Assembly: GCA_965223155.1 (NCBI GenBank)
Contig: CBDCVR010000015.1
Location: 544,001-608,000, forward strand
Source: Candidatus Multivoradales bacterium
GTDB taxonomy: Bacteria; Acidobacteriota; Thermoanaerobaculia; Multivoradales; JAHEKO01
DNA: 64,000 nucleotides
Reading direction: 5' to 3'
Of this stretch, positions 1 through 22,575 are shown piece by piece. Below the pieces are notes generated by a model. It did no database searches, was not told the origin of the DNA, and saw only the letters and a list, made by a program, of their open reading frames with translations. The translations under genes and the position numbers were made by a program. How positions within the stretch are numbered: position 1 is the stretch's first letter; every line of letters begins with the position of its first letter.

Positions 1-840
1 ATGGCTACGGAACGGCTCCTCCCACTCCTCGCCCTCGAAGCCGCTCCGGGTCGAGCCCAGGTGGCAGGTCACGCACCGGTCTACCCGATCCACGTTGGTG
101 AAGTTGATGTCGTTGTAGAGGCCTGACAGGATCACCTGCTCGATTTTGAGATCGGGCTGGACGAAGTCCATGAAGGGCGCGTTCAGGACGAAGTAGTCGA
201 GCTTCTTGTCCAGGTTGGCGACTCGCTGCTCGAGCCCGTCGAGGCCCGAGCGCAGCGCCGCCAGCTTGCTGTCAGCGGCGTCCAGGCCCGAGCGCTCGGC
301 CTCGAGCTGACTCTCCAGCTCGGCTTCCCGGACGCGCAGAGCTTCCAGCTCACGCAGCTCCCCTTCGAGCTTGGCCCCAAGCTCGTCGTTTTCCCGCTTC
401 CGCGTCTCGATGCGCTTGGCCTTGCCGCTCTGGAGCGCGACGTCGTACTCGTAGCGCGCGGTGTCGAGCTTGGACTTGGTGGCCCGCGAGGCCGCATCCA
501 CGATGTAGATCTGTTTGGCGGTGGCTTCGAGGTCGCCTTCCAGGGCCTCGAGATCGGCCTTGCGGTCGGCGAGCGCCGTCTCTTCGGCCGCGATCTCCTC
601 CCGAATCTGGCGGATCTCATTGTCGCTGAGGCTCTGCTTTTCGGCCTCGGCCTCGGCCACCAGCATCTGCTGCTCGCGCTCCCGGAACTCGGACTGGAGT
701 CGTTTCCAGGGCTTGGCGTAGTCGTCGAAGACCATCCACAGCGTTGTCGCCAGGAGCGCGATCGAGCTCCACGCGAAGACCGCGTTCAGACTGCGGAAGT
801 TGTAGTGCCGGTCGGGAATCTTCTTGGGCGCCTTGGACAT
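1..840 (-). CDS. Membrane-anchored c-type cytochrome subunit of the Rieske/cytochrome b complex (partial, runs off the window edge)
   Basis: Not in the ORF track. Manual translation from ATG at 840 stays open to position 1: MSKAPKK..., a TM helix (VFAWSSIALLATTLWMVF), about 165 aa of E/K/R/L/A-rich coiled coil, then DRCVTCH (CxxCH at nt 75-61). Lies directly downstream of the cytochrome b genes. Confidence 0.85.
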   Translation of the reverse strand, partial: MSKAPKKIPDRHYNFRSLNAVFAWSSIALLATTLWMVFDDYAKPWKRLQSEFREREQQMLVAEAEAEKQSLSDNEIRQIREEIAAEETALADRKADLEALEGDLEATAKQIYIVDAASRATKSKLDTARYEYDVALQSGKAKRIETRKRENDELGAKLEGELRELEALRVREAELESQLEAERSGLDAADSKLAALRSGLDGLEQRVANLDKKLDYFVLNAPFMDFVQPDLKIEQVILSGLYNDINFTNVDRVDRCVTCHLGSTRSGFEGEEWEEPFRSH

Positions 841-850
841 CGATCGGGCC

Positions 851-1930
851 TTACAGGTTCAGGAAGAATTCCTGGATGTGAACGAAGTACTTCAAGTTGA
901 AGATCCAGCGCAGGAACATCTTGATCGGCAAGAGCATCATGGTCAGAAACAGGCTCATGCCGACGTAGTAGCGCGGCGGCCCCATCTCGTCGTAGAAGCG
1001 CTTGATGTATTGCAACTTGATGAGAGCGACCGGCAGCACGAAGAAATAGCCCAGCATGAGCACGATGCCGAGGCTCTCCCGGATGATCCAGTGGGACGGC
1101 AGGCCCATCCCGAGGATCTTGATCCAGAAGATCTCGGACAGATCCACGTTGACCAGAGGCTCGATCTTGTTGACGTCCCAGAACTCGTAGGGACCGAAGA
1201 AGTTCCAGTTGGGCCCGCGCAGGAAGGTGCCGATGACGATGAGCTGGACCCAGAGGACGACGAAGCCGAACAAGAACAGGATGATCTCGGTCTTGCGTTC
1301 CTTGAAGGTGTAGTAACCGTTGCCCTTGGGATTGGTGTCGATGTACGGGATCGCCATCAAGCCGACGATGATGAGCCCCGGCAGAACCACCCCCGCCATC
1401 CAGGGATCGAAATAGACCAGCATTTCCTGGAGCCCCAGGAAGTACCACGGCGCCTTGGAAGGGTTCGGAGCCACCGACAGGTTGGCCGGCTCTTCGAGCG
1501 GCGCCTTGAGCACGATCGACCAGATCACCATCCCCACCGTCAGGATCACCATGCAGATGAACTCGGAGAAGACCAGGTCGGGCCAGGTGAAAATCTTGTC
1601 CTCGGACTCGCTCTTTTCGAACGTCGGCTCGCCGCGGTCGATGGCCTCATCGTTCTGGATGGCCTTGTACATCGCCAGCCACCAAAAGTAGCCGACGAGG
1701 TAGACCATCATCACGATGGGCACGTTGTCGGGCTTGGCCACGACCTCGCGAAAGGTCGGATCGAACGAGCTGACCACGAAAAACAGGGTCATCAGGATCA
1801 GCATGATCCAGCCGCCGGTCTTGGTCCAAAGCCACTTGGACTTGACCGCCAGCCAGAAGAGGATCAGGGAAAGGGTGAAGGAATACTGCGGGTACGAGAG
1901 GGTATTGATGAATCCCTTGATCGCTTCCAT
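851..1930 (-). CDS. Cytochrome b C-terminal subunit (subunit IV/PetD-like) with N- and C-terminal membrane extensions
   Basis: FTWPDLV...APLEEPAN...PNPSKAPWYFLGLQE (Qo-motif region), many TM helices, and position after cytochrome b6. Confidence 0.85.
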   Translation of the reverse strand: MEAIKGFINTLSYPQYSFTLSLILFWLAVKSKWLWTKTGGWIMLILMTLFFVVSSFDPTFREVVAKPDNVPIVMMVYLVGYFWWLAMYKAIQNDEAIDRGEPTFEKSESEDKIFTWPDLVFSEFICMVILTVGMVIWSIVLKAPLEEPANLSVAPNPSKAPWYFLGLQEMLVYFDPWMAGVVLPGLIIVGLMAIPYIDTNPKGNGYYTFKERKTEIILFLFGFVVLWVQLIVIGTFLRGPNWNFFGPYEFWDVNKIEPLVNVDLSEIFWIKILGMGLPSHWIIRESLGIVLMLGYFFVLPVALIKLQYIKRFYDEMGPPRYYVGMSLFLTMMLLPIKMFLRWIFNLKYFVHIQEFFLNL

Positions 1931-1986
1931 TACCGGCTCCCCCGCTTGCGCCTAGCGGCGACGATTTCGACTGCTACCACGGGCTG

Positions 1987-2772
1987 CTAGACCGGACCCG
2001 AGATTCCGCCGTCCTTGCGGACGCGCCAGAAGTGAACCGCCATCAGGCACGCCGCGACGAAGGGGATGCCGAGACAGTGCAGGACGTAGAAGCGGATGAG
2101 CGTTCCGCCACCGATGGTGCGGCCCGCAATGAGCGCAAAGCGGGCGTCGCTACCGACGTGAATGAGTTTCTGGCCCCCTAAGGTCAAGAGCGCCGCTCCT
2201 GGTCCCTCGTGCCCCAAGAGCGGCGTCGCTCGCGCCATGTTCGAGCCGACCGTGATCGCCCAGACCGCGAGCTGATCCCAAGGCAACAGGTACCCGGTAA
2301 AGGACAGCAAGAGTGTCAGCACCAGCAGGATCACGCCCACGTTCCAGTTGAACTCGCGCGGCGGCTTGTACGAACCGGTCATGAACACCCGGAACATGTG
2401 GAGCCACACCGCGATCACCATGGCATGGGCGCCCCAGCGATGGAGCTCGCGCATGATGCCGAAGGCGGCAACCTCGCGCAGATCCACCATGTCGAAGTAG
2501 GCGTACTCGACCGTCGGCCGGTAGTAGAACATCAGCAGCAACCCCGTAATGGTCTCCACCAGGAAGAGAAAGAACGAGGTCCCTCCCATGCACCACGTGT
2601 AGCTCATCCTGAGACCCGACTTCTTGACCTTGATCGGATGCAGATGCAGGACGACGTTGCCCAGCATCGCCAGGGCACGCTTCCGGTTGTCAGTCGGAAT
2701 CCCGACCCGGAAGATGGACTTCCAGATCTGGGACTTGACGATCGCCTTTTGAAGGTCTCTCAGTTTTTCCAT
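1987..2772 (-). CDS. petB: Cytochrome b6 (split cytochrome b, N-terminal subunit)
   Basis: Four heme His (LHRW, WLHM, VLHC, VHFW), YKPPREFNW, TGYLLPWDQ, C-terminal GISGP, and TWCMGG with the heme ci/cn Cys. Confidence 0.93.
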   Translation of the reverse strand: MEKLRDLQKAIVKSQIWKSIFRVGIPTDNRKRALAMLGNVVLHLHPIKVKKSGLRMSYTWCMGGTSFFLFLVETITGLLLMFYYRPTVEYAYFDMVDLREVAAFGIMRELHRWGAHAMVIAVWLHMFRVFMTGSYKPPREFNWNVGVILLVLTLLLSFTGYLLPWDQLAVWAITVGSNMARATPLLGHEGPGAALLTLGGQKLIHVGSDARFALIAGRTIGGGTLIRFYVLHCLGIPFVAACLMAVHFWRVRKDGGISGPV

Positions 2773-2824
2773 GAACTCCCCGCTCTATCCTGCCGAACCT
2801 TGTTTCCGGGTCCGGTCTCGAGAC

Positions 2825-3406
2825 CTAGCCCATCTCGAGGTACGAGTTGGGATCTTCCCAACCGCCCTGCTCCCACAAGTACCTTTGCGCCTTATCGACC
2901 ACGATCTGGCCATCGGCCGGATCGATCGCGATCTTGGCCCGCTCCAACGGCCGCGGCGTCGGACCCTCGAAGTTGATGCCGTTCTTGTAGTAGCCGCTGC
3001 CGTGGCACGGGCACTTGAATTTGTTCTGCGCTTCCAGCCAGGCGGGCGGACAGCCGAGGTGCGTGCAGATCGCGATCAGCGCGGTCAGCTGGCCCTCGTT
3101 GTTGACGATCCAGACGCCGTTCGAGTCCTTGAAGCGCTCGTCCACGACTCCCGGCGGAAAATCCGAAGGAGCTCCGACCTTGAAGGACGTCGGCGGCTCG
3201 AACAGCACGTTCGGGAACATAAAGCGCCCGAACGCCGTCATGCAGCCGCCGATGGCCGCGGTAAAACCAACCCACGCCACGGCCGCCCACGAGAACAGAC
3301 CGCGGCGGCTGATCTCGGCGTCGGCGGAGGCCTTGGGCTTGGCGGGCTTGGCCGCGGCCGGCTTTGCCGGCTCCGAACTTCCGTCCACCTGGATCTCTTC
3401 GCTCAT
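2825..3406 (-). CDS. petC: Rieske [2Fe-2S] subunit
   Basis: CTHLGC and CPCHGS boxes, GPTPRPL, Tat-like ISRRGLF before a TM helix. Start moved to ATG 3406 (MSEEIQ). Confidence 0.95.
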   Translation of the reverse strand: MSEEIQVDGSSEPAKPAAAKPAKPKASADAEISRRGLFSWAAVAWVGFTAAIGGCMTAFGRFMFPNVLFEPPTSFKVGAPSDFPPGVVDERFKDSNGVWIVNNEGQLTALIAICTHLGCPPAWLEAQNKFKCPCHGSGYYKNGINFEGPTPRPLERAKIAIDPADGQIVVDKAQRYLWEQGGWEDPNSYLEMG

Positions 3407-3582
3407 CGGGTTCGCTGGCCACGCAGAGGTTACCCCGCCCGCGCGCAAAACTGCCAAAACGTTGCGCTGTTTTTATTCGAACGGCCGCTTGGGTGTCAAG
3501 GTTGGCCGGACGCCGAAAACCCTTCGATCGGCCGGCCGGAACTCGCCCGGAGCCCGCGATCGGCACGGCTATACTCCCGACC

Positions 3583-4593
3583 ATGACGAAGAACCCTTTG
3601 CCCAGCGTCCCACGCCTCGTCCTTTCCCTGCTTTCGATCCTGACGATCGCCGCCGCCGGTCTGGTCCTGTCCGGTTGCCAATCCCAGCCACCCGACGATG
3701 TGGCCGTGATCGCCAAAGAGTCGGCGGTGGCCGCGGACGACGGCGCAGCCGAGCCAGTCCCGGTCGCAAACCCCGGCGTGGTCGACGTCCGCGCCGAAGA
3801 ATACGCCTTCTACGGACCACCGACTCTCCCGTCCGGGTGGGTCACACTCAGGTTCCACAACGACGGCGCCGAGCCGCACTTTCTCTTGCTCTGGAACCTT
3901 CCCGAGGGCAAGACCTTCGAGGACTACGACAACGATGTCGGCCAGCCGTTCGAGTCTCTGTACGTCCGCTACCGCGCCGGCGAGATCGACAAGGCCACTT
4001 TCTTCGAGAAGCTCATTGCCGCCATCCCGCCCTGGTTCTACGAAGCCGTGCCCATGGGCGGACCGGGCTTCACCGCTCCCGGCGCGACCTCGGAAGTCAC
4101 CGTCTATCTCGAGCCCGGCGACAACTACGTGATGGAGTGCTACGTCCGTGCCCAGATCCAGCCGGACAGCTTCCACGGCACCCACGGCATGTTCCGGCCG
4201 TTGATCGTCACCGACGAGGTCTCGCCGGTCGTCGCCCCGGAGCCCGACGTCCACGTCACTCTGTCGAGCTTCGAGCTCGCCGTCGAGGGCGAGCTCGGCG
4301 CCGGTTCGCATCTCGCCCGGGTGGCCGTTGAGGACACTCCCGAAGGTTTCGTGCGCCACAATGTCCATCTGGTGCGGCTCGAGAAGGGGCAGTCCGGCGC
4401 GACGGTGGCGGCCTGGATGGACTGGGTGGACGCCATGCTGCCACCGGCTCCGGCCGAGTTTCTGGGCGGCGCCGGCCAGACCGTCGAAGGAAGGGTCAGC
4501 TACGTGCCGTTTTCGCTGGAGCCGGGCCGCTACGCCTGGGTCTCGGAAGGATTCGCGGCCAAGGACATGGTCCACGAGTTCACCGTCGAGTAG
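3583..4593 (+). CDS. Two-domain cupredoxin-like lipoprotein
   Basis: Start ATG 3583. Lipobox VLSGC. Domain 1 has PHF...ECYV-x-FHGTHGM (H, C, H, M type-1 copper pattern). Domain 2 repeats the LEPG-Y pattern without the Cys. Confidence 0.65.
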   Translation: MTKNPLPSVPRLVLSLLSILTIAAAGLVLSGCQSQPPDDVAVIAKESAVAADDGAAEPVPVANPGVVDVRAEEYAFYGPPTLPSGWVTLRFHNDGAEPHFLLLWNLPEGKTFEDYDNDVGQPFESLYVRYRAGEIDKATFFEKLIAAIPPWFYEAVPMGGPGFTAPGATSEVTVYLEPGDNYVMECYVRAQIQPDSFHGTHGMFRPLIVTDEVSPVVAPEPDVHVTLSSFELAVEGELGAGSHLARVAVEDTPEGFVRHNVHLVRLEKGQSGATVAAWMDWVDAMLPPAPAEFLGGAGQTVEGRVSYVPFSLEPGRYAWVSEGFAAKDMVHEFTVE

Positions 4594-4603
4594 GCACGGC
4601 GCC

Positions 4604-6037
4604 ATGGCGACTCCCGAGACCGCGGCCATGCCCCGTGCCCGAGCACGCCGGCGGCGATTCTGCGGGCTCGGGCTCGCCATCGTTCTGGCGGCGCTCGCCG
4701 CAAGCCGCACCCCGGCGGCTGCAGCCGTCGTCGAGGAAGTCGAGACCCCGGGTGGTGAGCGCTACGCTCTGTTCACTCCATCCCCCGAGTCCGGCACGCG
4801 GCCAGATGGAGCGGTTCTCCTGGTCCTCGACACCCGCGGCCGCGCCGTCAGCGCTCTCGAGGCCTTCCGGCCCGCGGCCGAGCGGTTCGGCTACACGGTC
4901 CTGAGCTCGTACGCTACGCGCAGCGATCTCCCGGCGGGAACACCCGATCCCAACGAGCCCGCCGTGCGGGCGCTCCTGGACGAGGCCCAGACGCAGTACG
5001 GCGCCTCGCCCGGCCGCATCTATCTGGCCGGCTTTTCGGGCACTTCGCGCTTCGCCTGGATGGCGGGCAAGGTCTTTCCGGATCTCGTCGGCGGCATCGT
5101 GGGTTGTGGCGCCGGGCTGCCCGGTCCGTGGGCGGACTGGAAGGACGTCGGCTTCGCCTACTTTGGCACTGCCGGCCGCACCGACTTCAACCACCGAGAG
5201 ATGCGCGAGCTGGACCGCACCCTGGACGGCGTCCTGGTGCATCGCTTCGCCTATTTCGACGGCGGCCACCAATGGCTGGACTCGGAAACCGCGACTCAGG
5301 CTCTGGCCTTCTTCGAGCTCGAGGCCATGCGCCGGGGCCGGCGCGGGCGGGACGCGGCCTTGATCGAACAGCTTCTTGCCGAGCGTCTCGCCGCCGCCGC
5401 CGCAGCCGAGACCGGCGGCGAGCTTTACCGGGCGGCAACTCTGCTCGAGGCCGCGGCCGAGGACTTCGAGGGCTTGGTCTCGGTCGATCGGACCGACGGC
5501 GTCCGGGACCGGGCGGAAGCGCTTGCCGGCAACGCCGAAGTCCGAGCCGCGCGCGAAGCTCACGACCGAGCCGTCGGAGCCGAGCTCGAGTACCGCGACC
5601 GGGTCGGCGCCGTGGTTCGCGGCATCGCCTACGACGCGCAGCCCGGCTCGGCAAAGACTCTGGCCCGGGAGCTCGAGATCGAAACGCTCAAGGAGATCGC
5701 CGGCGGCGATTCGCTCGAGGCCGACTCCGCCCGCCGGCGCCTGGAGACGGCCTTCGTGCAGCTGGCCTTCTACACTCCGCGCGTCCTCGAGCCCAAGGCG
5801 CCGCGGCGAGCGGCCCTGTGTCTCGAGCTGGCGACCCGGATCCGCCCGGGCTCGAGCCAGCTCTGGCTGCGGCTGGCCCGGGCTCACGCCCGCGGCGGCC
5901 AGGCCAAGGCGGCGCTCGCCGCCCTCGAGCAGGCGGTCGAGCTGGGCGGTGTCGGCGCCGACGATCTCGACGACGAGGCCTTCACCTCGCTCGGCCGGAA
6001 TCCCGCCTTCGCGGCCTTACGGCAACGAGTGCGGTGA
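4604..6037 (+). CDS. Exported alpha/beta-hydrolase with helical/TPR C-terminus
   Basis: Signal-like hydrophobic segment, YLAGFSG nucleophile elbow, TD and GGH putative triad residues, and TPR-like C-terminus (LWLRLARAHARGGQAKAALAALEQA). Confidence 0.7.
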   Translation: MATPETAAMPRARARRRRFCGLGLAIVLAALAASRTPAAAAVVEEVETPGGERYALFTPSPESGTRPDGAVLLVLDTRGRAVSALEAFRPAAERFGYTVLSSYATRSDLPAGTPDPNEPAVRALLDEAQTQYGASPGRIYLAGFSGTSRFAWMAGKVFPDLVGGIVGCGAGLPGPWADWKDVGFAYFGTAGRTDFNHREMRELDRTLDGVLVHRFAYFDGGHQWLDSETATQALAFFELEAMRRGRRGRDAALIEQLLAERLAAAAAAETGGELYRAATLLEAAAEDFEGLVSVDRTDGVRDRAEALAGNAEVRAAREAHDRAVGAELEYRDRVGAVVRGIAYDAQPGSAKTLARELEIETLKEIAGGDSLEADSARRRLETAFVQLAFYTPRVLEPKAPRRAALCLELATRIRPGSSQLWLRLARAHARGGQAKAALAALEQAVELGGVGADDLDDEAFTSLGRNPAFAALRQRVR

Positions 6038-6059
6038 GGGTCCGGGGGACCGGGGATCC

Positions 6060-6713
6060 CTAGGATTCGTCACCCAAATCGACCAGGCGGTGCCTGAGGG
6101 CGTGCGCCACGACTTGGGCCCGGTTGTGGACGTGGAGCTTGTCCAGAATGTTGCGCACGTGGAACTTGACGGTGTTCTCGGTGATGCCCAGCTGCTTGGC
6201 GAGCTTGCGGTTGGTGGTCACGCCGTCGACCATGAGCTCCAAGACCTCTTGCTCTCGATCGGTGAGCGCGTCGGGGTCTTCGCTCCGGCCCCTTGGGGCC
6301 GGCTTGGCGAACTCGTCCAGGAGCTTCCGCGCCAGGGACGGCGTCAGTGCCGGCTCGCCCTTGCCGACGCCATCCAGAAGAGCGAAGAACTCGTCCGCCT
6401 CGAGATCCTTGAGCAGGTAGCCCTTAGCGCCGGCCTTGATCGATTCGAACAAGTTGGCATCGTCGTCCGACGCCGTCAGGATGATGACCTTGATCTCGGG
6501 CAGCTCGGCGGCGAAATGCTTGGTTGCCTCGAGGCCGTCAACCTCGGGCATGGCGAGGTCCATGAGCACGATCTCGGGCTTGAGCTCCCAGGCCTTTTCT
6601 AGCGCTTCCCGACCGTTCGAGGCTTCGCCGACCACCTCGTAGTCCCGGGCGCGGAGCAGGCTTCCCAGGCTCTCCCGAAAGAGCGCGTGGTCGTCAACGA
6701 TGAGTACTCGCAT
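6060..6713 (-). CDS. NarL/FixJ (DosR-like) response regulator
   Basis: Start ATG 6713: MRVLIVDDH, LMDLAMP phosphoacceptor, GYLLKD, and LuxR HTH (LTDREQEVL...TVKFHVRNILDKL). Confidence 0.95.
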   Translation of the reverse strand: MRVLIVDDHALFRESLGSLLRARDYEVVGEASNGREALEKAWELKPEIVLMDLAMPEVDGLEATKHFAAELPEIKVIILTASDDDANLFESIKAGAKGYLLKDLEADEFFALLDGVGKGEPALTPSLARKLLDEFAKPAPRGRSEDPDALTDREQEVLELMVDGVTTNRKLAKQLGITENTVKFHVRNILDKLHVHNRAQVVAHALRHRLVDLGDES

Positions 6714-6792
6714 AGGGATCTCCGTTCCGCCCGGCAACTCGGGGTCGTGACCAAGCCTAGCAGCCCGTCGTGGACGGCTCGGCCAAGGCCCG

Positions 6793-8139
6793 CTAGACGA
6801 TGGGCACCTCGAAGCGTACGCAGGTGCCGGCACCGCGGCTGGACTGGATCTCGAGGGTGCCGCCCGCGCTCTCGGCCCGTTCCTTCATGATGGTCAGGCC
6901 GAAACGCGGCAGGCCGGCGCGCTCGACGCTTGCCGGATCGAAGCCGGCGCCATCGTCTTCCACCGTAGCGATGAGGCCCTTGTCATCCCGCCGGATGCTG
7001 ACCTGCACCCGGTCCGCGTCAGCGTGCTTGCGCACGTTGGCCAGAGCCTCCTGGACGACCCGGAGCATCTGGAGCTCCACCCCGGGGCTCACCTCGAGCG
7101 GGTCGTCAATCGCGAGCTCGCCCGGGATGCCGCTGCCCTCCTGCCAGTGCGCGAAGTACTCGCGCAGAACTTCGGCGATCTGGCGTTCGCCGCTGGGCTG
7201 GGAGCGCAAGGCCAGGATCCCCTCACGAACGTCCGAGTAAGCCTCCCGAGCGGCCGCCGCCAACTGATCGAGTTGCTTGCCAGCCTCGGCGTCCTTGCCC
7301 GCCCGCAGAAATTCCTGCACCGCCTGCGCCTTGGTGTTGACGTAAGCAAGGACCTGCGCCATGCCGTCGTGCATCTCGCGACCGATGCGGCCCCGCTCCT
7401 CGGCGACCGCCAGATTCTCCAGCTCATGATGCAAGTACGACTTGTCGATCGCCACCGCCGCGGTGGCCGCGAAGCGCACCAGCATCTCCTCGTCGGCCTC
7501 GGAGAAAGTCTTGGCGGCCTCCTTGTTGGCGAGGTAGAGGTTGCCACGAAACGGGCCCTGGCAAAGGATCGGCACCGCCAGCAGACTGGCCATCGTCGGG
7601 TGGTGCTCGGGCACGCCACACGAGCGCGGATCGGCCTTGAGGTCGTCCAGGCGCAGATGCCGGCGCTCGTGCAGAACGACGCCCAAGAGGCCCTTGCCCT
7701 GGGGCGGTTCACCGATACGTTCCCTCTCGACGGCAGATAGACCCGAGGTGACGAACTCGACGATACGACCGGTCTCGGCGTTGACCGAGAGCGCGCCGTA
7801 ACGGGCATCCAGAAGCTCCCGAGCCTGGTCCACGATGCGCTGCAAGACGATCTCGAGCTCGAGCTCGCCGTGGATGTCGCGGGCCGCCCGGCCGATGGCC
7901 AGGAGCTCGCGGTTCTGGGCGTCCAGACGCCGGTGCATGTCGGTTAGAAACATGAAGGCGATGCCGACCGGAAAGAGAACCGCCAGAGTCACGATGCCGG
8001 TCCATACCAGCCGTCCCTGCCAGGTCTGAAGGTAGGGCTCGAGGGCGTGGGTGGCCGCGGCGAGGACCACGATGACGGTTAGGAAGCCCGCCAGCGACAT
8101 CCACTTGAACCGACGCAGATCCAGTTGCCGTACGCTCAT
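6793..8139 (-). CDS. Membrane-anchored GAF sensor histidine kinase (HisKA_3; DosS/DevS-like GAF)
   Basis: Two N-terminal TM helices, a GAF domain, ERGRIGREMHD H-box, QEALANVRKHA N-box, VEDDGAGFD G1-box. Confidence 0.92.
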   Translation of the reverse strand: MSVRQLDLRRFKWMSLAGFLTVIVVLAAATHALEPYLQTWQGRLVWTGIVTLAVLFPVGIAFMFLTDMHRRLDAQNRELLAIGRAARDIHGELELEIVLQRIVDQARELLDARYGALSVNAETGRIVEFVTSGLSAVERERIGEPPQGKGLLGVVLHERRHLRLDDLKADPRSCGVPEHHPTMASLLAVPILCQGPFRGNLYLANKEAAKTFSEADEEMLVRFAATAAVAIDKSYLHHELENLAVAEERGRIGREMHDGMAQVLAYVNTKAQAVQEFLRAGKDAEAGKQLDQLAAAAREAYSDVREGILALRSQPSGERQIAEVLREYFAHWQEGSGIPGELAIDDPLEVSPGVELQMLRVVQEALANVRKHADADRVQVSIRRDDKGLIATVEDDGAGFDPASVERAGLPRFGLTIMKERAESAGGTLEIQSSRGAGTCVRFEVPIV

Positions 8140-8221
8140 CGAGTCTCGGTGAGTATAGTGATCCGTGCGGTCCGGCTCCGGCGCGAAGTGGCCGCGATCT
8201 CGGTGGGTACCGGCCTTCCGG

Positions 8222-8446
8222 CTACCGCTTGCGGCTCCTCGTGCTGATCCCGAGCACGGCGTAGAAAGGCGACCACCCTAGGATTCCGGTCACCAGGGGA
8301 TACCAACCCACGATGCGGCAGGTCACGGTCGCCAGGCCCTGAGGCGGCGCCAGCCAGCCGATCCCCAGCAGAAGCGCGCCCAGCACGATTCGCACGGTTC
8401 GATCGACACCGTTCTGGTTCGGCAGATTCTTGGCGAGAAAGCTCAT
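8222..8446 (-). CDS. DUF2892 / YgaP-like small membrane protein
   Basis: NQNGVDRTVRIVLG...LVTGILGWSPFYAVLGIST matches the DUF2892 pattern, with Ser where the usual CP Cys sits. Start ATG 8446. Confidence 0.85.
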   Translation of the reverse strand: MSFLAKNLPNQNGVDRTVRIVLGALLLGIGWLAPPQGLATVTCRIVGWYPLVTGILGWSPFYAVLGISTRSRKR

Positions 8447-8564
8447 CTCGCCGGCCGGATCGAGGTGCGCACGCCTCAGCATGGCTCGAACGGCGATCGC
8501 GGCGCCACACCCGGCCGGGTAGGTTTGATCCACCAGGGCCGGCGCCCGCCTGGGAAGTTAGACC

Positions 8565-13487: not shown

Positions 13488-14869
<1,382 letters not shown>

Positions 14870-14873
<4 letters not shown>

Positions 14874-15424
14874 GCGCTCCGGTGACCGGCAAGCGGCTTC
14901 CCCTCCACGGCGTCATGGCCGAGTTCGGCGGTCCCCGCCGCCTGCTGCGGGCGATCAAGGCGGCCCGCGAAGCCGGCTACTCCAAGATGGACGCCTACAC
15001 GCCCTATCCCATCCACGACGTCTGGGAGGCACTCGGGCATCACAAGTCGAAGCTGCCTCCGATCGTCCTCATCGGCGGACTCCTGGGCGCGGCGTTGGGC
15101 TTCGGGCTCCAGTACTGGGTCTCGGTCATCGAATATCCCCTCAACATCGGCGGCCGGCCGCTCAATAGCTGGCCCGCCTTCATCCCGGTGACTTTCGAGA
15201 CCACGATCCTGGTGGCGACGTTCTTCGCCGTGCTGGGAATGTTCGCCTTGAACGGGCTGCCCGAGCCCTACCACCCCGTCTTCAACGTCAAGCGTTTCGC
15301 GCTGGCGTCGCGAGACCGCTTCTTTCTCTGCATCGAGGCCTCCGATCCCATGTTCGACCGCGCCGGAACCGCCGAGTTCCTGCAATCGCTGGAAGCCGAG
15401 GAGGTCTCCGAAGTTGCCTCCTAG
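14870..15424 (+). CDS. actD: Alternative complex III subunit D (DUF3341)
   Basis: [36 protein letters not shown]. Confidence 0.93.
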
Positions 15425-16058
15425 AGCTTCCAGCCTGGGCCGGCCAGCCGGCCTGGCCTGCCTGGCGCTCGCCACCATCTTGGCCGGCGGCTGCCGTCAG
15501 GACATGCACGATCAGCCGGTGCTCGAGCCCTACGAAGCCAGCGACTTCTTCTCGGACGGACGCGCCGACCGCGCGCCGATCGACGGCACCGTGGCCCGGG
15601 GCCAGCTCTCCGAAGACCGCGCCTACTTCACCGGTCTCGACGGCGACGCCTTCGTCACCGCGCTACCGGTACCGGTAACTCGGACGCTTCTCGAGCGCGG
15701 CCGGGAACGCTACGAGATCTTCTGCTCACCCTGCCACGACCGGCTGGGCGCGGGCCAAGGCATGATCGTGCGGCGGGGCTTCAAGCAGCCCGCCTCGTTC
15801 CATGAGGCCCGGCTGCGCGAGCAGCCCGCCGGGTACTACTTCGATGTCATGACCCGAGGCTTCGGTGACATGTCGAACTACGCCGCCCAGATCTCGGCCG
15901 CCGATCGATGGGCCATCGCGGCCTACATCCGCGTCTTGCAGCGTTCGCAGCGAGTCGAGGTGAATCGGCTACCGGCGGCTCTAAGGAGCCACGTTCTGGC
16001 CGGCCTCGAAACGCCTCCGGCCGCCGGCGGCGCCCCGCAAGAAGGACACGATGACTGA
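15414..16058 (+). CDS. actE: Alternative complex III subunit E, monoheme cytochrome c lipoprotein
   Basis: Lipobox LAGGC-RQDMHDQP, GTVARG, CSPCH, DRWAIAAYIRVLQ. Confidence 0.93.
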   Translation: MPPRASSLGRPAGLACLALATILAGGCRQDMHDQPVLEPYEASDFFSDGRADRAPIDGTVARGQLSEDRAYFTGLDGDAFVTALPVPVTRTLLERGRERYEIFCSPCHDRLGAGQGMIVRRGFKQPASFHEARLREQPAGYYFDVMTRGFGDMSNYAAQISAADRWAIAAYIRVLQRSQRVEVNRLPAALRSHVLAGLETPPAAGGAPQEGHDD

Positions 16059-17235
16059 CCCGCGTGAGCTGACCGCCGAGAACTTCGCCCCGCCAAGCGA
16101 CTTGGCCCGGATCCGGCGCACGGCGCTCGGCCTTGGCATCGCCGGCGCGGCGCTCTGTGTCCTCGGACTCGTCGTCGATCGCGAGCAGGTCTTCCGCTCT
16201 CATCTCGTCGCCTGGATCTTCTGGATGGGCATCGCCATGGGCGGCTTCGGCACCATGCTGCTCCACCACATGACCCGTGGCGCCTGGGGACTTCTGATCC
16301 GTCGAATCTTCGAAGCCGGAGCACGGACCCTGCCCGTCCTGGTCTTGCTTTTCCTGCCGGTCCTCTTCGGACTCACCGCGCTCTTTCCGTGGGCGCGACC
16401 CGAGGCGGCCGCGGACTCGCTGATCCAGACCAAGGCCTGGTACCTGAATCCCGGATTCTTCATGCTGCGAGCGGCAATCTACTTCGCGATTTGGGGCCTT
16501 TTCACCTGGGTGCTGCTGCGGCGGTCCCGGCTTCAGGACGAGACCCGGAACCCGGGCCTCTTGCGCAAGATGCAGAACGTGGCGGGGCCTGGACTGGGCA
16601 TCTACGGATTGACCGCGACCTTCGGCTCGGTCGACTGGCTGATGTCGCTCGATCCCCACTGGTACTCGAGCCTCTTCGGCGTCTACTTCATCGGCGGCCA
16701 GGCCGTAGCGGCGATGGCGGCGGCCATCCTCATGGTCCGCTACCTGGCCAAGCGCCCGCCGCTCGAGGGCGTGTTTCAGCCGCGCCACTACCACGACTAC
16801 GGCAACTTGCTGATGGCCTTCATGCTGCTCTGGAGCTACTTCGGCTTGTCGCAGCTCCTCATCATCTGGACCGGGAACCTACCTGAAGAGACCGTCTGGT
16901 ACATCCACCGTAGCGAGCATGGCTGGCAGTGGGTCTCGATCGCGCTCGCGCTGTTCCACTTCGCGGTGCCGTTCTTCCTGCTCCTGAATCGTTCGGTCAA
17001 GCGCGACATCGACCGGCTGGCCAAGGTGGCCGTCCTGCTGCTGGTTGTGCACTGGCTCGACGTCTACTGGCTGGCAGCGCCCGCCTGGCACGAGCACCTG
17101 ACCGTGCACTGGCTGGATCTGGCCGCCACGGTCGCGGTCGGGGGCCTCTGGTTCGGTGCCTTCTGCCACGCTCTCGGCAAGCGGCCCCTGCTGCCGCTGG
17201 GCGACCCATATCTCGACGAGGCCCTGGAATCATGA
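16051..17235 (+). CDS. actF: Alternative complex III subunit F
   Basis: DWLMSLDPHWYSSLFG, HDYGNLL, IWTGNLPEE; about 10 TM helices. Confidence 0.93.
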   Translation: MTDPRELTAENFAPPSDLARIRRTALGLGIAGAALCVLGLVVDREQVFRSHLVAWIFWMGIAMGGFGTMLLHHMTRGAWGLLIRRIFEAGARTLPVLVLLFLPVLFGLTALFPWARPEAAADSLIQTKAWYLNPGFFMLRAAIYFAIWGLFTWVLLRRSRLQDETRNPGLLRKMQNVAGPGLGIYGLTATFGSVDWLMSLDPHWYSSLFGVYFIGGQAVAAMAAAILMVRYLAKRPPLEGVFQPRHYHDYGNLLMAFMLLWSYFGLSQLLIIWTGNLPEETVWYIHRSEHGWQWVSIALALFHFAVPFFLLLNRSVKRDIDRLAKVAVLLLVVHWLDVYWLAAPAWHEHLTVHWLDLAATVAVGGLWFGAFCHALGKRPLLPLGDPYLDEALES

Positions 17236-17702
17236 GCGAGACTCCGCGTCACGACACCTCGCGGCCTCTGGACGCCGAGCTCAGCCTGCGCGGCATCATC
17301 GGTTTCGCGGTAGGCCTCACGGTCGTGGTGGCGATCGCCGCCGTCGCCATGTGGTTTTCCTCCGGTTTCTTGAAGGACCGCATCGCGGCCTCGGACCCGC
17401 CGCCCCCGGCTCTGCCCGAAGCGCGCCAGGCCGTCACGCCGCCCGGCCCGGCGCTTCAAACCGATCCTCAACAGGACCTGGCGGCGCTCCGGACGGAGGA
17501 AGACGACCTCTTGACCACCTACGGCTGGATCGACGAAGGCCAAGGCCTCGCCCGGGTTCCGGTGGAGGTCGCGATCCAGCTCGAATTGGAAGCTCCGTCG
17601 TCGCCGCCGGCTGCGGCCGAGGACGTTGTCGAGGACGGCGTTCCTTCGGCGGAAACCGCGGCTGACACGCCGGCAGACACCCAGGAGGAAGGCCTCGAAT
17701 GA
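17232..17702 (+). CDS. actG: ActG-like single-TM subunit
   Basis: ATG 17232 overlaps the actF stop. One TM, then P-x-LQ and LTTYGWID...RVPVEVAI. Lies between actF and SCO. Confidence 0.7.
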   Translation: MSETPRHDTSRPLDAELSLRGIIGFAVGLTVVVAIAAVAMWFSSGFLKDRIAASDPPPPALPEARQAVTPPGPALQTDPQQDLAALRTEEDDLLTTYGWIDEGQGLARVPVEVAIQLELEAPSSPPAAAEDVVEDGVPSAETAADTPADTQEEGLE

Positions 17703-18610
17703 GTGCCCGAGCCACGCTTCTCGCCGCCCTTCTGGCCGCCACGACCTGGATCGCGGGTGCGGCCCCCGAGCCGGCGGCGGCAACGCCCGGTGCGCGACCG
17801 CGGGACGGGCACACGGCCAGCGCCGTCCCCGCCGAGCTCGGAGCCATCGCCTTCGAGCAGAAGCTGGGCGAGACCATCCCGGGCGAGCTCGAGCTGGTCG
17901 ATTCCGAGGGCCGGCCGGTTGGCCTGGGCGAGCTCGTCACCACGCGGCCGGCGCTCCTGGTCCCGGTCTACTACGACTGCCCGATGCTCTGCGGGCTGAC
18001 CCTGGAGGGCCTGACCAAGGCGCTCAAGACGCTGTCCCTGACCCCGGGGTCGGATTTCGACGTCATCGCTTTCTCGATCGACCCCGCTGAGACCGCCGAG
18101 CAGGCCCGCGCCGCCCGCGCGCGCACGCTGGCTCGGCTGGCCGACTCCGGAGTGGCCCGCGATCGGATCGACGCCGGCGGCGCCGGCTGGCACTTCCTGG
18201 TGGGCTCCGAGGCGGTTGTCGCCCGGCTCACCGAAGCCATCGGATTTTCTTTCAGCAGCGACGAGGCCACCGGGGAGCTCGCCCACGCCGCCGGGCTCCT
18301 GGTGCTGACGCCGGACGGCGTCATCGCCCGCGTCTTTTTCGGAGTCGAGTTCCCGCCGCGCGATCTCAGGCTGGCTCTGGTCGAGGCCGGCGCCGGCCGG
18401 ATCGGCAACGTCGTGGACCAGATCCTCCTCTACTGCTTTCGCTACGATCCGGCCTCGGGCCGCTACACCGCCGCGATCTTGAATCTCGTCCGCGCCGGTG
18501 GCGGATTGACGCTGCTGGTGCTCCTCGGCTTCCTGTTCAGAAGCTGGCGCTCAGAGCGCCGGCTGACGGCGGCCGAGAACGCCGCCGGCGCCGGCGGGAG
18601 GCTCGCCTAG
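17699..18610 (+). CDS. SCO1/SenC copper chaperone family protein
   Basis: YYDCPMLC (CxxxC), conserved His (LAHAAG), LLYCFRYDP, C-terminal TM. Confidence 0.92.
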   Translation: MSARATLLAALLAATTWIAGAAPEPAAATPGARPRDGHTASAVPAELGAIAFEQKLGETIPGELELVDSEGRPVGLGELVTTRPALLVPVYYDCPMLCGLTLEGLTKALKTLSLTPGSDFDVIAFSIDPAETAEQARAARARTLARLADSGVARDRIDAGGAGWHFLVGSEAVVARLTEAIGFSFSSDEATGELAHAAGLLVLTPDGVIARVFFGVEFPPRDLRLALVEAGAGRIGNVVDQILLYCFRYDPASGRYTAAILNLVRAGGGLTLLVLLGFLFRSWRSERRLTAAENAAGAGGRLA

Positions 18611-19564
18611 ATGCCCGAGAGCTTCCCGCTTTTCCCCGCCCGCGCAACCGAGCTCGCCCGCGAGATCGACGCGCTCTTCTTCACTGCGCTCGGCATCACG
18701 ACCGTCTTCTCGATCCTGATCGCGTCGCTCATCCTGTACTTCGCGATTCGCTACAAGCGCCGTTCCGAAGACGAGGTGGGCCAGCCCGAAAAAGCCGGCA
18801 TGTGGCTCGAGGTCACCTGGTCGGTGATCCCTCTGGCGATTCTGATGTTCCTCTTCTCCTGGGGCGCCAAGATCTACTTCGAGGCGCGCCGGCCGCCGGC
18901 CGACGCCGTTACCTACTACGTAACCGGCAAGCAGTGGATGTGGAAGGTCCAGCATCCGAATGGCCGGCGCGAGATCAACGAGCTCCACGTCCCGGTCGGT
19001 CAGAGCATCAAGCTCATCATGACCTCGGAGGACGTCATCCACTCCTTCTTCGTCCCGGCCTTCCGGGTCAAGATGGACATCCTGCCAGGTCGGTACACGA
19101 CCCTGTGGTTCCGGGCTGACAAGACCGGGACCTACCGGCTCTTCTGCGCCGAGTACTGCGGCGCCGAGCACTCTTTGATGCGGGGCTCGATCGTGGTGCT
19201 GGAGCCCCGAGGCTACGAAGCCTGGCTGGGCGGCCGCCAGACCCAAACCGAGCGCGTCGCCACCGGCGAGGAGCTCTTCTCGCGTCTCGCCTGCGACACC
19301 TGCCACCGGGCCGACAGCGCCGCCCAGGCGCCGATCCTGGATCGCACCTTCGGGAGCGAGGTGCGCTTTACCGACGGCACCTCAGTGATCGCCGACGAGA
19401 ACTACCTGCGCGAGTCCATCCTGAACCCGGGCGCCCAGGTCGTCGAGGGATACAACGCGATCATGCCGACCGCACAAGGCAAGCTGAACGAGGAGGAGCT
19501 GCTCCAGCTCATCCGCTATCTGAAGGGGCTGACTGACGAGGCGGCCGAGGACGAAGCACCATGA
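18611..19564 (+). CDS. ctaC: Cytochrome c oxidase subunit II with fused cytochrome c (caa3 type)
   Basis: DVIHSF, CuA motif [13 protein letters not shown]-terminal CDTCH. Confidence 0.96.
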
Positions 19565-21189
19565 CGGCTCAACAGGTCACCAAGGCGGATCGCCGACGCA
19601 CACACTATCTGAACGCCGAGTACGGCGTCCGGTCGTGGCTCTTGACCCACGATCACAAGAGGATCGCGATCCTCTACTTGATCTCGATCTCTGCCTTCTT
19701 CTTCATCGGCGGCCTGATGGCGGTGCTCATCCGGCTCGAGCTGGCCACTCCGGCTGGCGACTTCGTCCAGCCGGACACCTACAACCGGCTATTCACGATG
19801 CACGGCATCGTCATGGTCTTCTTCTTCCTGATCCCATCGATCCCGGCGGTTCTGGGGAACTTCCTGATCCCGCTCATGATCGGCGCCAAGGACCTCGCGT
19901 TTCCCCGGGTCAACCTGGGTAGTTGGTACGTCTACACGCTGGGCGGCCTCTTCACCCTCTGGTCCATCATCCAGGGCGGCGTCGATACCGGCTGGACCTT
20001 CTATACGCCGTTCTCGACGATGTACTCGAACACATTCGTCATCTCGACGGCTCTCGGGATTTTCATCACCGGGTTCTCCTCGATCATGACCGGGGTCAAC
20101 TTCATCGTCACCATCCACAGAATGCGGGCGCCGGGGCTGTCCTGGTTCCGGCTGCCGCTCTTCGTGTGGGCCCACTACGCCACCGCCCTCATCATGGTGC
20201 TGGGAACGCCTGTCTTGGCCATCACCATCCTTCTGGTCGCGGCCGAGCGCGTGCTCCACATCGGCATCTTCGACCCGGCCCTGGGCGGCGACCCGGTGCT
20301 CTTCCAGCACCTTTTCTGGTTCTACTCCCATCCTGCGGTCTACATCATGATCCTGCCCTCGATGGGGGTCATCTCCGAGCTCATCACCGCCTTCGCCCGG
20401 AAACGCATCTTTGGGTACAAGTTCATCGCCTTCGCTTCGGTGGCCATCGCGGTCCTGGGATTCCTGGTCTGGGGACACCACATGTTCTTGTCCAGCCAGT
20501 CCGTGTACGCGGGAATGATCTTCTCGGTGCTGTCGATGCTGGTCGCCGTGCCCTCGGCGATCAAGGTCTTCAACTGGACCGCCACACTCTATGAGGGCTC
20601 GGTGTCCTGGGACACGCCGATGCTCTACGCCCTGGGCTTTATCGGCCTCTTTACCATCGGCGGGCTGACCGGGGTCATGCTGGCGACGCTGGGTATCGAC
20701 ATCCACGTCCACGACACCTACTTCGTCGTCGCCCACTTCCACTACATCATGGTGGGCGGCGCCATCATGGGCTACCTGGGCGGTCTCCACTTCTGGTGGC
20801 CCAAGATCACAGGCCGCCTCTATCCAATCTTCTGGTCCAAGTTCTCGGCCATCGTGATCTTCGTCGGTTTCAACCTGACCTTCTTTCCCCAGTTCCTACT
20901 GGGCTACCTGGGCATGCCACGGCGGTACTACACCTATCCCGAGGATTTCCAGGTGCTGAACGTCATGTCCTCGGCTGGCGCCACGATCCTGGGCATCGGC
21001 TACCTGATTCCGATCATCTACTTCGTATGGTCGATGCGCTACGGCCAGCGGGCCACGGCCAACCCTTGGGGCGCCGAGGGGCTCGAGTGGCAGACCGAGT
21101 CACCACCGCCGACGCTCAACTTCGACGAGCCGCCGACGGTCACGCGTGAAGCCTATGCCTATTCCGACTCCGAGACGGTGAACGTATGA
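19561..21189 (+). CDS. ctaD: Cytochrome c oxidase subunit I, A2 type
   Basis: [19 protein letters not shown] (A2 YS motif), WGHHM, AHFHY, GMPRRY. Confidence 0.97.
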
Positions 21190-21866
21190 GCGATTCGACG
21201 GTCCACGCCACGGCTGCCGATAGCGGGCATCTAGCCTCTCACTGGGACAGCCTCGAGCAGCAGCAGGAGGCCTCCTTCTTCGGCATGTGGGTGTTCCTGG
21301 TCACCGAGATCATGTTCTTCGGCGGCCTCTTCGCGGCCTACGTGGTCTACCGGGCCGGGCACCAGCAAGGCTTCGCGCTGGCGTCGAACGAGCTCTCGAT
21401 CGGCTGGGGCGCGTTCAACACCGCCGTTCTGATCGGATCCAGCCTGACCATGGCGCTCGCGGTCTGGGCCGCGGCCTCCGAACGGCGCAAGGCGCTGGTC
21501 GGCCTCCTTATCGGCACGATCGCGCTGGGCTCGGTCTTCCTGGGCGTCAAAGCCGTCGAGTACTCGCACAAGTTCCACGAGCATCTGGTGCCTGGAGCGG
21601 CATTCGACGCCGGACACTTTCCGGACCGCTATGCCAACGACGCCCACATGTTCTTCAATCTCTACTTCGTCATGACCGGGCTTCATGCCCTGCACATGGT
21701 GATCGGCATCGGTCTCTTGACCTGGCTGGTCGTTCTAGCCAGGCGGGGCCGCTTCACCGCCGGCAACCACAATTTCGTCGAAGGCGTTGGCCTCTACTGG
21801 CACTTTGTCGACATCGTCTGGATCTTCCTGTTTCCGGTTCTCTACCTGCTGGGAAGGGCCACCTGA
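21186..21866 (+). CDS. ctaE: Cytochrome c oxidase subunit III
   Basis: [36 protein letters not shown]. Confidence 0.95.
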
Positions 21867-21869
21867 GCC

Positions 21870-22157
21870 ATGAGCGAGCATTCCTACTCGATCAAACCGT
21901 ATCTGGCCGTCTTCGCGGCACTCATGGTCCTGACGGCCGCCACCGTGGCCGTAGCCTTCGTGGACCTGGGCGCTTTCAACGACGTCGTGGCCATGGCCAT
22001 CGCGGTGCTCAAGGCCACCTTGGTCGTCCTCGTCTTCATGCACGTTCGCCAGAGCGCGCGCATGACCAAGCTCGCCATCGTGTCGGGCTTCCTGTGGCTG
22101 GCGATCCTGATCGGCCTGACTCTGTCGGACTACTGGAGCCGCGGCTTCCTCGGCTGA
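21870..22157 (+). CDS. ctaF: Cytochrome c oxidase subunit IV
   Basis: Three TM helices, IAVLKATLVVLVFMHV motif, position after subunit III. Confidence 0.9.
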   Translation: MSEHSYSIKPYLAVFAALMVLTAATVAVAFVDLGAFNDVVAMAIAVLKATLVVLVFMHVRQSARMTKLAIVSGFLWLAILIGLTLSDYWSRGFLG

Positions 22158-22212
22158 GCGTAGCCGTGGCATACTGCGCCCGCTTCACGCAGAGCCAACG
22201 GAGGACCTTCGG

Positions 22213-22575
22213 ATGTCGTATCTCACCTACAAGTTCCTGCATCTCGCCGGCATCTTGGTCCTGTTCGTGACCGCCGGCGGAGTTGCGCTCTACGCCGCCA
22301 ACGGCGGCACCAAGGAGGGCAACACGGCGCGCGCCTGGGTCTCGGTCCTCCACGGCCTCTCGCTCGTCGTCATCCTGGTCAGCGGCTTCGGGCTGGTGGC
22401 GCGCATCGAGAGCGGCTTCGCTCCTTGGGTCTGGGCCAAGTTCGCCCTCTGGTTCGTGCTCGGCAGCTTCGCGCTGCTGCCACTTCGCCGCCAGAGCCTG
22501 GGCATGCCCTTCTACTTCCTGGTCCCGGCCCTGGGCATGGTCGCCGCCTACCTGGCGCTCTTCAAGCCCTTCTAG
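22213..22575 (+). CDS. Small four-TM membrane protein (SirB2/HemJ-like)
   Basis: GAGGA RBS; YKFLH, LHG and WVWAK motifs; C-terminal KPF. Confidence 0.7.
   Translation: MSYLTYKFLHLAGILVLFVTAGGVALYAANGGTKEGNTARAWVSVLHGLSLVVILVSGFGLVARIESGFAPWVWAKFALWFVLGSFALLPLRRQSLGMPFYFLVPALGMVAAYLALFKPF

Follow-up and report, generated by a model that had tools for sequence, protein, structure and literature searches.

A 64,000-nt stretch of the genome of Candidatus Multivoradales bacterium (Acidobacteriota, Thermoanaerobaculia; contig CBDCVR010000015.1, positions 544,001 to 608,000), hereafter the window, carries two respiratory operons head to head within its first 22,575 nt. A Rieske/cytochrome b6 operon (pet) is read leftward and an alternative complex III (ACIII) operon with a caa3-type oxidase (act-cta) is read rightward, and a two-component system with a predicted haem sensor and a Rex-type operator lie between them. 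Do these elements form one switch that partitions quinol oxidation between the two branches, as an earlier note on this DNA had proposed, or do they belong to different layers of control? We consider it somewhat probable that the locus did not arise as a single switch but is a respiratory hub in layers, in which Rex would set the capacity of the main chain and the haem sensor would switch on alternative branches genome-wide. The genome comparisons below show a conserved hub of HEAT-pet and act-cta units with a Rex box, a mobile module with a DosT-like kinase, and a candidate palindrome that travels with this module and marks respiratory genes.

The Rex-type operator was confirmed. The 18-nt palindrome at 9622–9639 matches the Rex consensus TTGTGAA-N4-TTCACAA perfectly (Ravcheev et al. 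2012, as quoted in PMC5317091), lies 104 nt from the start codons of both the HEAT gene and actA, and is the sole perfect match in the 4.0-Mb genome. A 20-nt pattern with a 6-nt spacer was tried and rejected because it gave no match even when 3 mismatches were allowed, and the correct form is the 18-nt one with a 4-nt spacer. Elsewhere in the genome, a box with one mismatch was located upstream of atpB, the gene for the ATP synthase a-subunit, and three boxes with two mismatches were located at nuoA (76 nt upstream of a nuoA-nuoE-nuoF cluster), ABC/T2SS-E and cheA/regulator. Because one reversed and four Markov-simulated control genomes gave no perfect, no one-mismatch and 0–2 two-mismatch matches, the window and atpB boxes stand out and the two-mismatch boxes do not. 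The genome encodes one canonical Rex protein (221 aa; PF06971 at 63–66 bits, and the CoA_binding Rossmann domain PF02629 at 68 bits). A sigma-70-like act promoter (TTGACA-16 nt-TATCCT; 9582–9609, plus strand) ends 12 nt before the Rex box and is the sole such match in positions 3300–9900.

The box upstream of actA is conserved in seven relatives. It is perfect in G001, G002, G012, G015 and G022, has one mismatch in G007 and two in G040, and the promoter hexamers are kept together with it in G001, G002 and G007. A Rex box with at most one mismatch was also found within 450 nt upstream of the HEAT gene in 10 of 74 loci, compared to 6 of 1480 random windows, and 6 of these 10 loci had no act genes nearby. 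Rex boxes precede both HEAT-pet and act in relatives; therefore, they point to co-regulation of the two branches and not to partition. This bears on the first rival explanation, in which a dedicated local switch made of the haem-GAF system and Rex jointly partitions quinol oxidation between the Rieske/cytochrome b6 complex and ACIII-caa3. A further point against it is the upstream region of the window Rieske gene, which contains no Rex box (best match, 7 mismatches).

To place the two operons in their lineage, 40 relatives and the window genome (G000) were searched for the kinase, ActD and the window-type cytochrome b6 (cytb6), with at least 321 bits defining a full-length kinase orthologue and at least 84% identity defining cytb6. 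ActD was matched in 35 of these 41 genomes, a kinase orthologue in 34 and the window-type cytb6 in 21 (84–97% identity). In 14 of the 21 genomes with a cytb6 orthologue, cytb6 and ActD were at most 25 kb apart on the same contig. Acidobacterial strains carry cytochrome bc1 and/or ACIII as complex III, according to Trojan et al. (2021, PMC8407424), and the cytb6 and ActD searches showed that Rieske/cytochrome b and ACIII coexist in this lineage.

A second comparison used 80 Acidobacteriota loci anchored on the HEAT gene (L054–L133), mostly from metagenome-assembled genomes (MAGs) of Thermoanaerobaculia. In the window, this gene (8565–9518, minus strand; PF13646, 144 bits) encodes a membrane-anchored HEAT-repeat protein, which had been counted among the sensing genes. 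Rieske/cytb6 came directly after it in 45 of the 69 loci with at least 2.5 kb of downstream sequence; with distances of up to 10 kb admitted, the count rose to 58. The HEAT gene therefore heads the pet unit and does not belong to a sensing cassette. Of the 54 loci that had 5 kb or more upstream, 20 showed a divergent actA within 2.5 kb of the HEAT gene. The minimal arrangement was detected by tblastn in G015, G040 and G019, where cytC-subIV-cytb6-Rieske-HEAT are read one way and actA onward the other way, with no kinase. Judging by gene order, HEAT-Rieske-cytb6-subunit IV-cytochrome c is the ancestral co-directional unit of Thermoanaerobaculia, often divergent from act-cta. The HEAT-repeat (PBS-lyase-like) membrane protein thus heads the Rieske/cytochrome b6 operon of this lineage as its conserved first gene, and this makes it a candidate for an assembly factor or an additional subunit.

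The genes between the two operons fared differently. The kinase was present in only 2 of the 80 HEAT loci, and among the relatives' loci examined by tblastn the lipoprotein had a counterpart in none of 24 and the hydrolase-like gene in one of 24. Of the pet/act block taken as a conserved unit, the adjacency of the two operons recurs, and the full set of intervening genes does not. The rarity of the kinase at HEAT loci also speaks against a dedicated local switch.

The sensor module comprises three genes on the minus strand. The first gene (8222–8446, with the open reading frame (ORF) extending to 8533; PF11127, 53 bits) encodes a small YgaP-like transmembrane protein of the DUF2892 family, and it lies directly upstream of the kinase in all 15 genomes aligned. 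The kinase (6793–8139) has two hydrophobic helices followed by GAF, HisKA_3 (PF07730) and HATPase_c (PF02518) domains. Its single GAF domain spans residues 93–232 in Pfam after the two hydrophobic stretches, and the soluble layout with tandem GAF-A and GAF-B was not found. The third gene encodes a NarL/LuxR-type response regulator (6060–6713, ORF extending to 6833; PF00072 and PF00196).

The GAF domain aligned without gaps to GAF-A of DosT (2vzw, E = 1e-31) and of DevS (2w3d, E = 1e-27). In DevS, His149 is the proximal haem ligand and Tyr171 the distal residue, as given in PMC4082495. A distal tyrosine of this kind hydrogen-bonds the ligand in DosS/DosT-type sensors. H180 of the window kinase occupies the position of DevS His149, Y202 that of DevS Tyr171 and DosT Tyr169, and both are invariant in 22 of 22 orthologues, as is the predicted phospho-accepting H257. 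The description of the two proteins as a DosS/DosR-like pair thus suits the kinase, with its DosT/DevS-type GAF domain and invariant haem histidine and distal tyrosine; the regulator is a generic NarL/VraR-type protein without a Dos box.

The position of the module varies among genomes. It sits at the pet/act junction in 6 of the 34 kinase-bearing genomes: between HEAT and Rieske in G000, G001 and G002 (all of the same genus), between a nos cluster and HEAT in G012, and divergent from actA in G007 and G022. In 8 genomes it is at most 6 kb from a different Rieske/cytochrome b operon (G026, G037, G029, G019, G023, G024, G010 and, as a paralogue, G014). It adjoins tandem universal stress protein (USP) genes in G020, G014, G019 and G010, the last two with CBS and DUF302 genes, and it has mixed or non-respiratory neighbours in G015, G030 and G032. 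In G002 the whole series HEAT-DUF2892-kinase-regulator-USP-USP-cytochrome c-Rieske-cytb6-subIV-cytC is co-directional. The kinase rows of L026 and L028 were left out of the annotation because the ORF choice by third-position G+C content (GC3) took the wrong strand. In the kinase tree, the window genus and G007 form a supported clade, and G012 and G022 fall elsewhere. This tree and an approximately unbiased (AU) test (p = 0.016) speak against one common origin of all act/pet-adjacent copies. On these comparisons, the DUF2892-kinase-regulator unit is a mobile module that was inserted between HEAT and Rieske in this genus.

This distribution feeds two rival explanations in different ways. For the local switch, the module lies exactly between the operons in G000, G001 and G002. 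In G012, G007 and G022 it adjoins act or pet, and the act/pet-adjacent modules fall into two or more distinct parts of the kinase tree. The second rival explanation holds that the module lies there without regulatory significance: the HEAT/Rieske junction would be an insertion hot spot where the module landed by chance, and its targets, if any, would be unrelated to its neighbours. It draws on the unrelated cargo found at this junction in other genomes (nosZDFY, a monohaem cytochrome c, a CRP/FNR-type regulator, methyltransferases and a patatin-like gene), on the non-conserved lipoprotein and hydrolase-like genes of the window, and on the modules with mixed or non-respiratory neighbours. However, the inserted genes are themselves mostly respiratory (nos, cytochrome c, USP), the contexts of the module are mainly Rieske/cytochrome b, act and USP genes, and the operator matches described below are enriched near respiratory genes. 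We therefore regard chance insertion as quite unlikely. As a separate observation on this junction, the CRP/FNR-type regulator gene between HEAT and Rieske was found in G019 (L059:10858–11562), whose act region contains no Rex box at up to 2 mismatches.

A palindrome, CYACCC-N4-GGGTRG, was found 52–184 nt upstream of the DUF2892 start in 11 of 15 modules and is the candidate operator of the regulator. Sites were scored with a position weight matrix (PWM). The window site upstream of the module (8506–8523) scored 20.6, and a weak operator-like palindrome downstream of the act promoter (9658–9675) scored 15.9. The window genome was the one scanned whole, and it gave 11 matches at or above 15.9, compared to 1–3 in each of four control genomes (one reversed and three Markov-simulated). 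Nine of the 11 matches were intergenic or 5' of a gene, and six of these flank respiratory electron-transfer genes (oxidase, Rieske/cytochrome b, c-type cytochromes, ACIII). The CYACCC-N4-GGGTRG sites include one on contig C13 near 696853 and one on contig C14 near 1299406.

After the module itself, the highest scores were found at a COX2-COX1 oxidase operon (19.4) and at a second operon of Rieske, cytochrome b, multihaem and molybdopterin oxidoreductase genes (19.4). OsmC followed at 19.0, a 752-aa multihaem protein at 18.7, and, at 18.4, a site flanked on one side by a monohaem cytochrome c and on the other by an aldehyde dehydrogenase. Lower scores were obtained for a PFOR/CBS divergent pair (17.9), a YhhN/Band-7 gap (17.8), a NapC-MtrA-MtrB-like operon (17.7) and an intragenic match (16.8). 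The upstream region of the window Rieske gene scored 0.8 at best, and no site of at least 12 was found near the pet Rieske gene in 24 loci from relatives. The earlier proposal that the response regulator acts on pet and act was therefore not supported: no candidate operator stands at Rieske, and the strongest sites are elsewhere in the genome.

Operator sites in relatives also stand at respiratory genes. They were found upstream of module-adjacent, non-pet Rieske genes in G026, G037 and G029, at 8 of 17 further non-pet Rieske loci, upstream of nosZ in two genomes (G012 and L102) and, weakly (12.8–14.1), upstream of USP genes. Upstream of actA, a site of 18.0 was found in G020, where the Rex box is lost, and a site of 18.1 lies between actA and the inserted nosZ in G012. 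In 1 of the 80 HEAT loci (L105), a site of 17.4 stands between HEAT and Rieske. Two side observations belong here. In G020 (L039:8120–8450) the Rex box upstream of actA has been deleted and a strong operator-like palindrome stands in its place, which looks like a swap of regulatory input. In L030:9648–16501 (G012) and L102:10746–17560, the act/HEAT or HEAT/Rieske junction has received nosZ-nosDF-nosY genes, each time preceded by an operator-like palindrome.

For the local switch, these scans gave mixed results. The 15.9 site downstream of the act promoter, the actA-side sites of G020 and G012 and the L105 site speak for such a switch. Against this, the window Rieske promoter carries neither a Rex nor an operator site, the best operator sites of the genome lie elsewhere, and a third quinol-oxidising module has a stronger operator (19.4) than the act operon. 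Because the module was repeatedly recruited to the junction and a weak act site is present, we leave the local switch some chance, but we consider it unlikely. For a dedicated unit that partitions quinol oxidation by haem-GAF and Rex signals, the sensors themselves are in place (a haem-GAF homologue, a rex gene and a Rex box), and a private switch between pet and act is only weakly supported.

A third rival explanation assigns the palindrome to another transcription factor or to a structural element, so that the NarL-type regulator would have a separate regulon. The link between motif and regulator was drawn from sequence, a site was found in G003, where no kinase was detected, and the strict pattern occurred 5 times in the window genome, near the figure of about 4 estimated by hand from base composition. 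However, the motif accompanies the module in at least five different genomic contexts, 11 of 15 modules have it, and G025, which has no kinase, also has no site at the orthologous second Rieske operon. A dyad with 4-nt spacing also suits a LuxR-type dimer. We consider this third explanation highly improbable.

Several observations weigh against the layered hub. The matrix was symmetrised and built from the module-upstream sites, so that the highest scores are those of training sites, and the operator was tied to the regulator because autoregulation was assumed. The palindrome at 9658–9675 is not conserved in G001 and G002 of the same genus, and its score is at the level at which 1–3 chance matches per genome occur, which weakens the act-proximal site. 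Strong sites at the second Rieske operon were absent in 3 of 7 kinase-bearing genomes with a close orthologue (G004, G022 and the truncated locus of G039). G003 has an operator-like site and no kinase match; its kinase region may be unassembled, because the assembly also has no ActD and no cytb6. The closest solved relatives of the regulator were VraR and NarL, with DevR fifth. For the Dos box, taking GGGAC-N4-GTCCC as the core, one match with one mismatch was found in the 64 kb, inside a gene, compared to 5.6 expected, and none was found in promoter regions. The AU test, which rejected a single clade of all act/pet-adjacent kinases, was applied to a group picked after inspection of the tree. 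Finally, the two-mismatch Rex box at nuoA is not above chance, given 0–2 such matches in the controls, and is plausible by context only.

With these points in mind, the layered hub remains our preferred reading, and it can be laid out as a mechanism. Haem binding, gas sensing, the link between regulator and operator, relief of Rex repression by NADH, and the separation of pet from its Rex promoter with the sensor left behind that promoter are steps that we infer. When NADH is low relative to NAD+, Rex would bind its operator and hold down ACIII-caa3, and probably also the HEAT-led transcript together with the ATP synthase operon. A rise in NADH would free Rex from the operator, as expected from known Rex behaviour. 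The kinase would bind haem through H180, with Y202 on the distal side, would report O2, NO or CO, and would phosphorylate the regulator by way of H257.

The regulator would then bind CYACCC-N4-GGGTRG at the promoter of its own module and at a genome-wide low-oxygen set. This set may comprise the second haem-copper oxidase, the second Rieske/cytochrome b operon with its multihaem and molybdoenzyme genes, multihaem cytochromes, the MtrAB-like operon, PFOR/CBS and OsmC and, in relatives, also nosZ and tandem USP genes. The effect of the haem sensor on the neighbouring pet and act operons would be modest at most: act has a single weak site, located downstream of its promoter, and pet has no site. 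In this genus, the insertion of the module would have severed pet from the Rex-controlled HEAT promoter, and the sensor module would now lie downstream of that promoter.

A bolder proposal can be built on the same data. The DUF2892 protein may be a two-helix partner of a membrane-anchored, single-GAF offshoot of the DosT type. With the regulator, the two might form a haem gas sensor of three parts, integrated in the membrane and so far known from Thermoanaerobaculia, which would control respiratory branching as a master regulator by way of an undescribed operator, CYACCC-N4-GGGTRG. The insertion in the window genus might then have put an oxygen sensor under Rex and freed Rieske/cytochrome b6, so that the redox signal gates the oxygen response. 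We advance this proposal tentatively, with a modest chance of being right.

The gene content and orientation reported for both operons were borne out by Pfam and NCBIfam scans, with Rieske/cytochrome b6/subunit IV/cytochrome c leftward and act-SCO-caa3 rightward. All pet genes are on the minus strand. The Rieske 2Fe-2S subunit (2825–3457; PF00355) has the motifs CTHLGC and CPCHGS in its translation. The cytochrome b6-like subunit of a split cytochrome b is encoded at 1987–2772 (PF00033, 138 bits; ExtP, 261 bits), and a 359-aa membrane subunit resembling subunit IV/PetD at 851–1930 (PF00032; ExtQ, 64 bits). A Rieske 2Fe-2S protein, a split b6 plus subunit IV and a c-type cytochrome in one operon correspond to a b6f-like complex.

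The cytochrome c at positions 1–840 is the 5' part of a protein of about 977 aa that continues left of the window. This part holds a transmembrane helix, a coiled coil and the first CxxCH motif, and the 697 further residues beyond the left edge hold a Cytochrome_C7-like multihaem region and three class-I Cytochrom_C domains. The whole protein (window 1–840 plus L006:7907–10000) combines a transmembrane helix with roughly 200 residues of coiled coil, a multihaem part and three class-I domains, and such a composition is unusual for a complex III cytochrome.

The act operon is on the plus strand, with actA to actF at 9743–17235. The gene starts are 9743 for actA, 10416 for actB, 13488 for actC, 14870 for actD (PF11821, 224 bits), 15414 for actE and 16051 for actF. 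Pfam and NCBIfam identified ActA as a multihaem cytochrome c, ActB as a molybdopterin-like and iron-sulphur protein with a twin-arginine translocation (TAT) signal, ActC and ActF as NrfD-like proteins, ActD, and ActE as a monohaem cytochrome c. ActF had no Pfam match of its own and showed 23–27% identity to ActC by tblastn. The operon had been described as actA-G, and actA to actF stand. The actG position is occupied by a one-transmembrane ORF of about 150 aa (17238–17702, start codon not fixed), which is conserved at the same position in 7 relatives with 39–62% identity; there is no ActG family model for it to match. A 169-aa ORF at 17156–17665 was considered as the gene between actF and SCO and was rejected, since conservation was seen only in the other frame (17238–17702).

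Downstream, also on the plus strand, are a SCO1/SenC-like copper chaperone (17699–18610; PF02630) and the caa3-type oxidase (18611–22157). The oxidase genes start at 18611 (coxII with a fused cytochrome c), 19561 (coxI), 21186 (coxIII) and 21870 (coxIV). The caa3 type follows from the Pfam matches, namely COX2 and Cytochrom_C in one protein, COX1 at 502 bits, COX3 and COX4_pro. The last gene of this part (22213–22575, plus strand) encodes a small SirB/DUF2214-like membrane protein, with weak Pfam matches below the cut-off.

Two genes on the plus strand lie between pet and the sensor module. The first (3583–4593) encodes a lipoprotein of unassigned family, with a signal peptide and a cysteine in its translation and no Pfam or NCBIfam match. 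An Atlas lead connects it to clusters in which 12–14% of the members carry cupredoxin families, and an AlphaFold2 model made without an alignment had a mean predicted local distance difference test (pLDDT) score of 36 and was unusable. The second (4604–6037) encodes a secreted protein with a C-terminal TPR region (weak TPR matches) and an alpha/beta-hydrolase-like lead from Atlas matches to hydrolase-plus-TPR clusters at 0.94–0.98. The one relative with a counterpart at the locus was G001 (52% identity). Of the two names given in the earlier note, cupredoxin-like lipoprotein and hydrolase, the lipoprotein assignment held and both function labels are Atlas leads only. These two genes are non-conserved filler at the locus. 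In the sister genome G002 (L035:6280–8709), their place is taken by two USP genes in tandem and a monohaem cytochrome c.

A census of the window genome gave four COX1 genes, two Rieske/cytochrome b operons and one ACIII. No cytochrome bd was found, and USP genes gave 0 matches at 98.7% completeness. The two different complex IIIs that had been noted are both present, and the count rises by a third quinol-oxidising module, the second Rieske/cytochrome b operon on contig C14, which has a strong candidate operator 43 nt upstream. Joined to this operon (L019; C14, 1299450–1305176) are a multihaem cytochrome of 550 aa, a molybdopterin oxidoreductase of 783 aa and an alginate-export-like porin.

On contig C15, the region L047 (1069844–1081341) holds a porin-cytochrome operon (NapC/NirT, MtrA-like, MtrB/PioB-like) and the PFOR/CBS divergent pair, each with an operator-like site, which suggests that extracellular electron transfer may be under the same control as the other operator-bearing genes. 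Another haem-copper oxidase subunit I gene, counted among the four COX1 genes, lies at C15, 529718–531145, about 13 kb left of the window. Within the window, an AT skew of 0.19–0.28 was recorded over 40001–48000, and the G+C content was 0.54–0.57 over 60001–64000 compared to about 0.67 elsewhere.

Thermoanaerobaculia are known mostly from MAGs, and their respiratory regulation is uncharted. The locus gives testable regulatory predictions, first of all a Rex operator common to ACIII-caa3 and the HEAT-led unit. It also offers a predicted DosT-like haem sensor outside Actinobacteria with a new architecture, and a candidate operator that outlines a low-oxygen regulon of an alternative oxidase, the second Rieske/cytochrome b-molybdoenzyme operon, multihaem and porin-cytochrome genes and, in relatives, nosZ. 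The idea of a switch between two complex IIIs is weakened.

Compared to known Rex regulons, the likeness lies in a canonical rex gene, an operator that equals the consensus at the start of a respiratory operon, and a near-perfect second box at the ATP synthase operon. The difference lies in the targets, which here are the ACIII-caa3 operon and, in relatives, the HEAT-Rieske/cytochrome b6 operon. The available part of PMC5317091 contains no link between Rex and alternative complex III, and the novelty of these targets is meant within such literature searching.

The pet operon resembles the ExtP/ExtQ group of NCBIfam, which are split Rieske/cytochrome b complexes with a multihaem cytochrome c, in its split b6-like and subunit IV-like subunits. 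However, the window proteins score below the equivalog cut-offs (ExtP, 261 versus 290 bits; ExtQ, 64 versus 150 bits), and the operon starts with a HEAT-repeat membrane protein and ends with a coiled-coil, multi-domain cytochrome c of about 977 aa. For the other branch, the ACIII-caa3 clusters of Rhodothermus marinus and Flavobacterium johnsoniae reportedly run from actABCDEF into caa3-type oxidase genes, and the window has the same order of act and then caa3 genes in one direction. Unlike those clusters, it has SCO and a lineage-specific one-transmembrane ORF between act and cox, and its act cluster is divergent from a Rieske/cytochrome b6 operon, with a Rex box common to both.

The closest parallel for the sensor is DosS (DevS)/DosT-DosR of mycobacteria, with GAF-A homology, the conserved proximal histidine and distal tyrosine, a HisKA_3 plus HATPase_c core and an adjacent NarL/LuxR regulator. 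Acidobacteria were not mentioned among the matches listed in a literature search on DosT-type haem GAF domains. In contrast to DosS/DosT, the window kinase has two N-terminal transmembrane helices and one GAF domain without GAF-B, and a DUF2892 gene always precedes it. In contrast to DosR, with DevR only the fifth-best solved relative of the regulator, the module has a different candidate palindrome in place of a Dos box, and its host is an acidobacterium. The Dos regulon of mycobacteria contains USP and CBS proteins, and the sensor module of relatives adjoins tandem USP and CBS-domain genes, a neighbourhood comparable to the content of that regulon.

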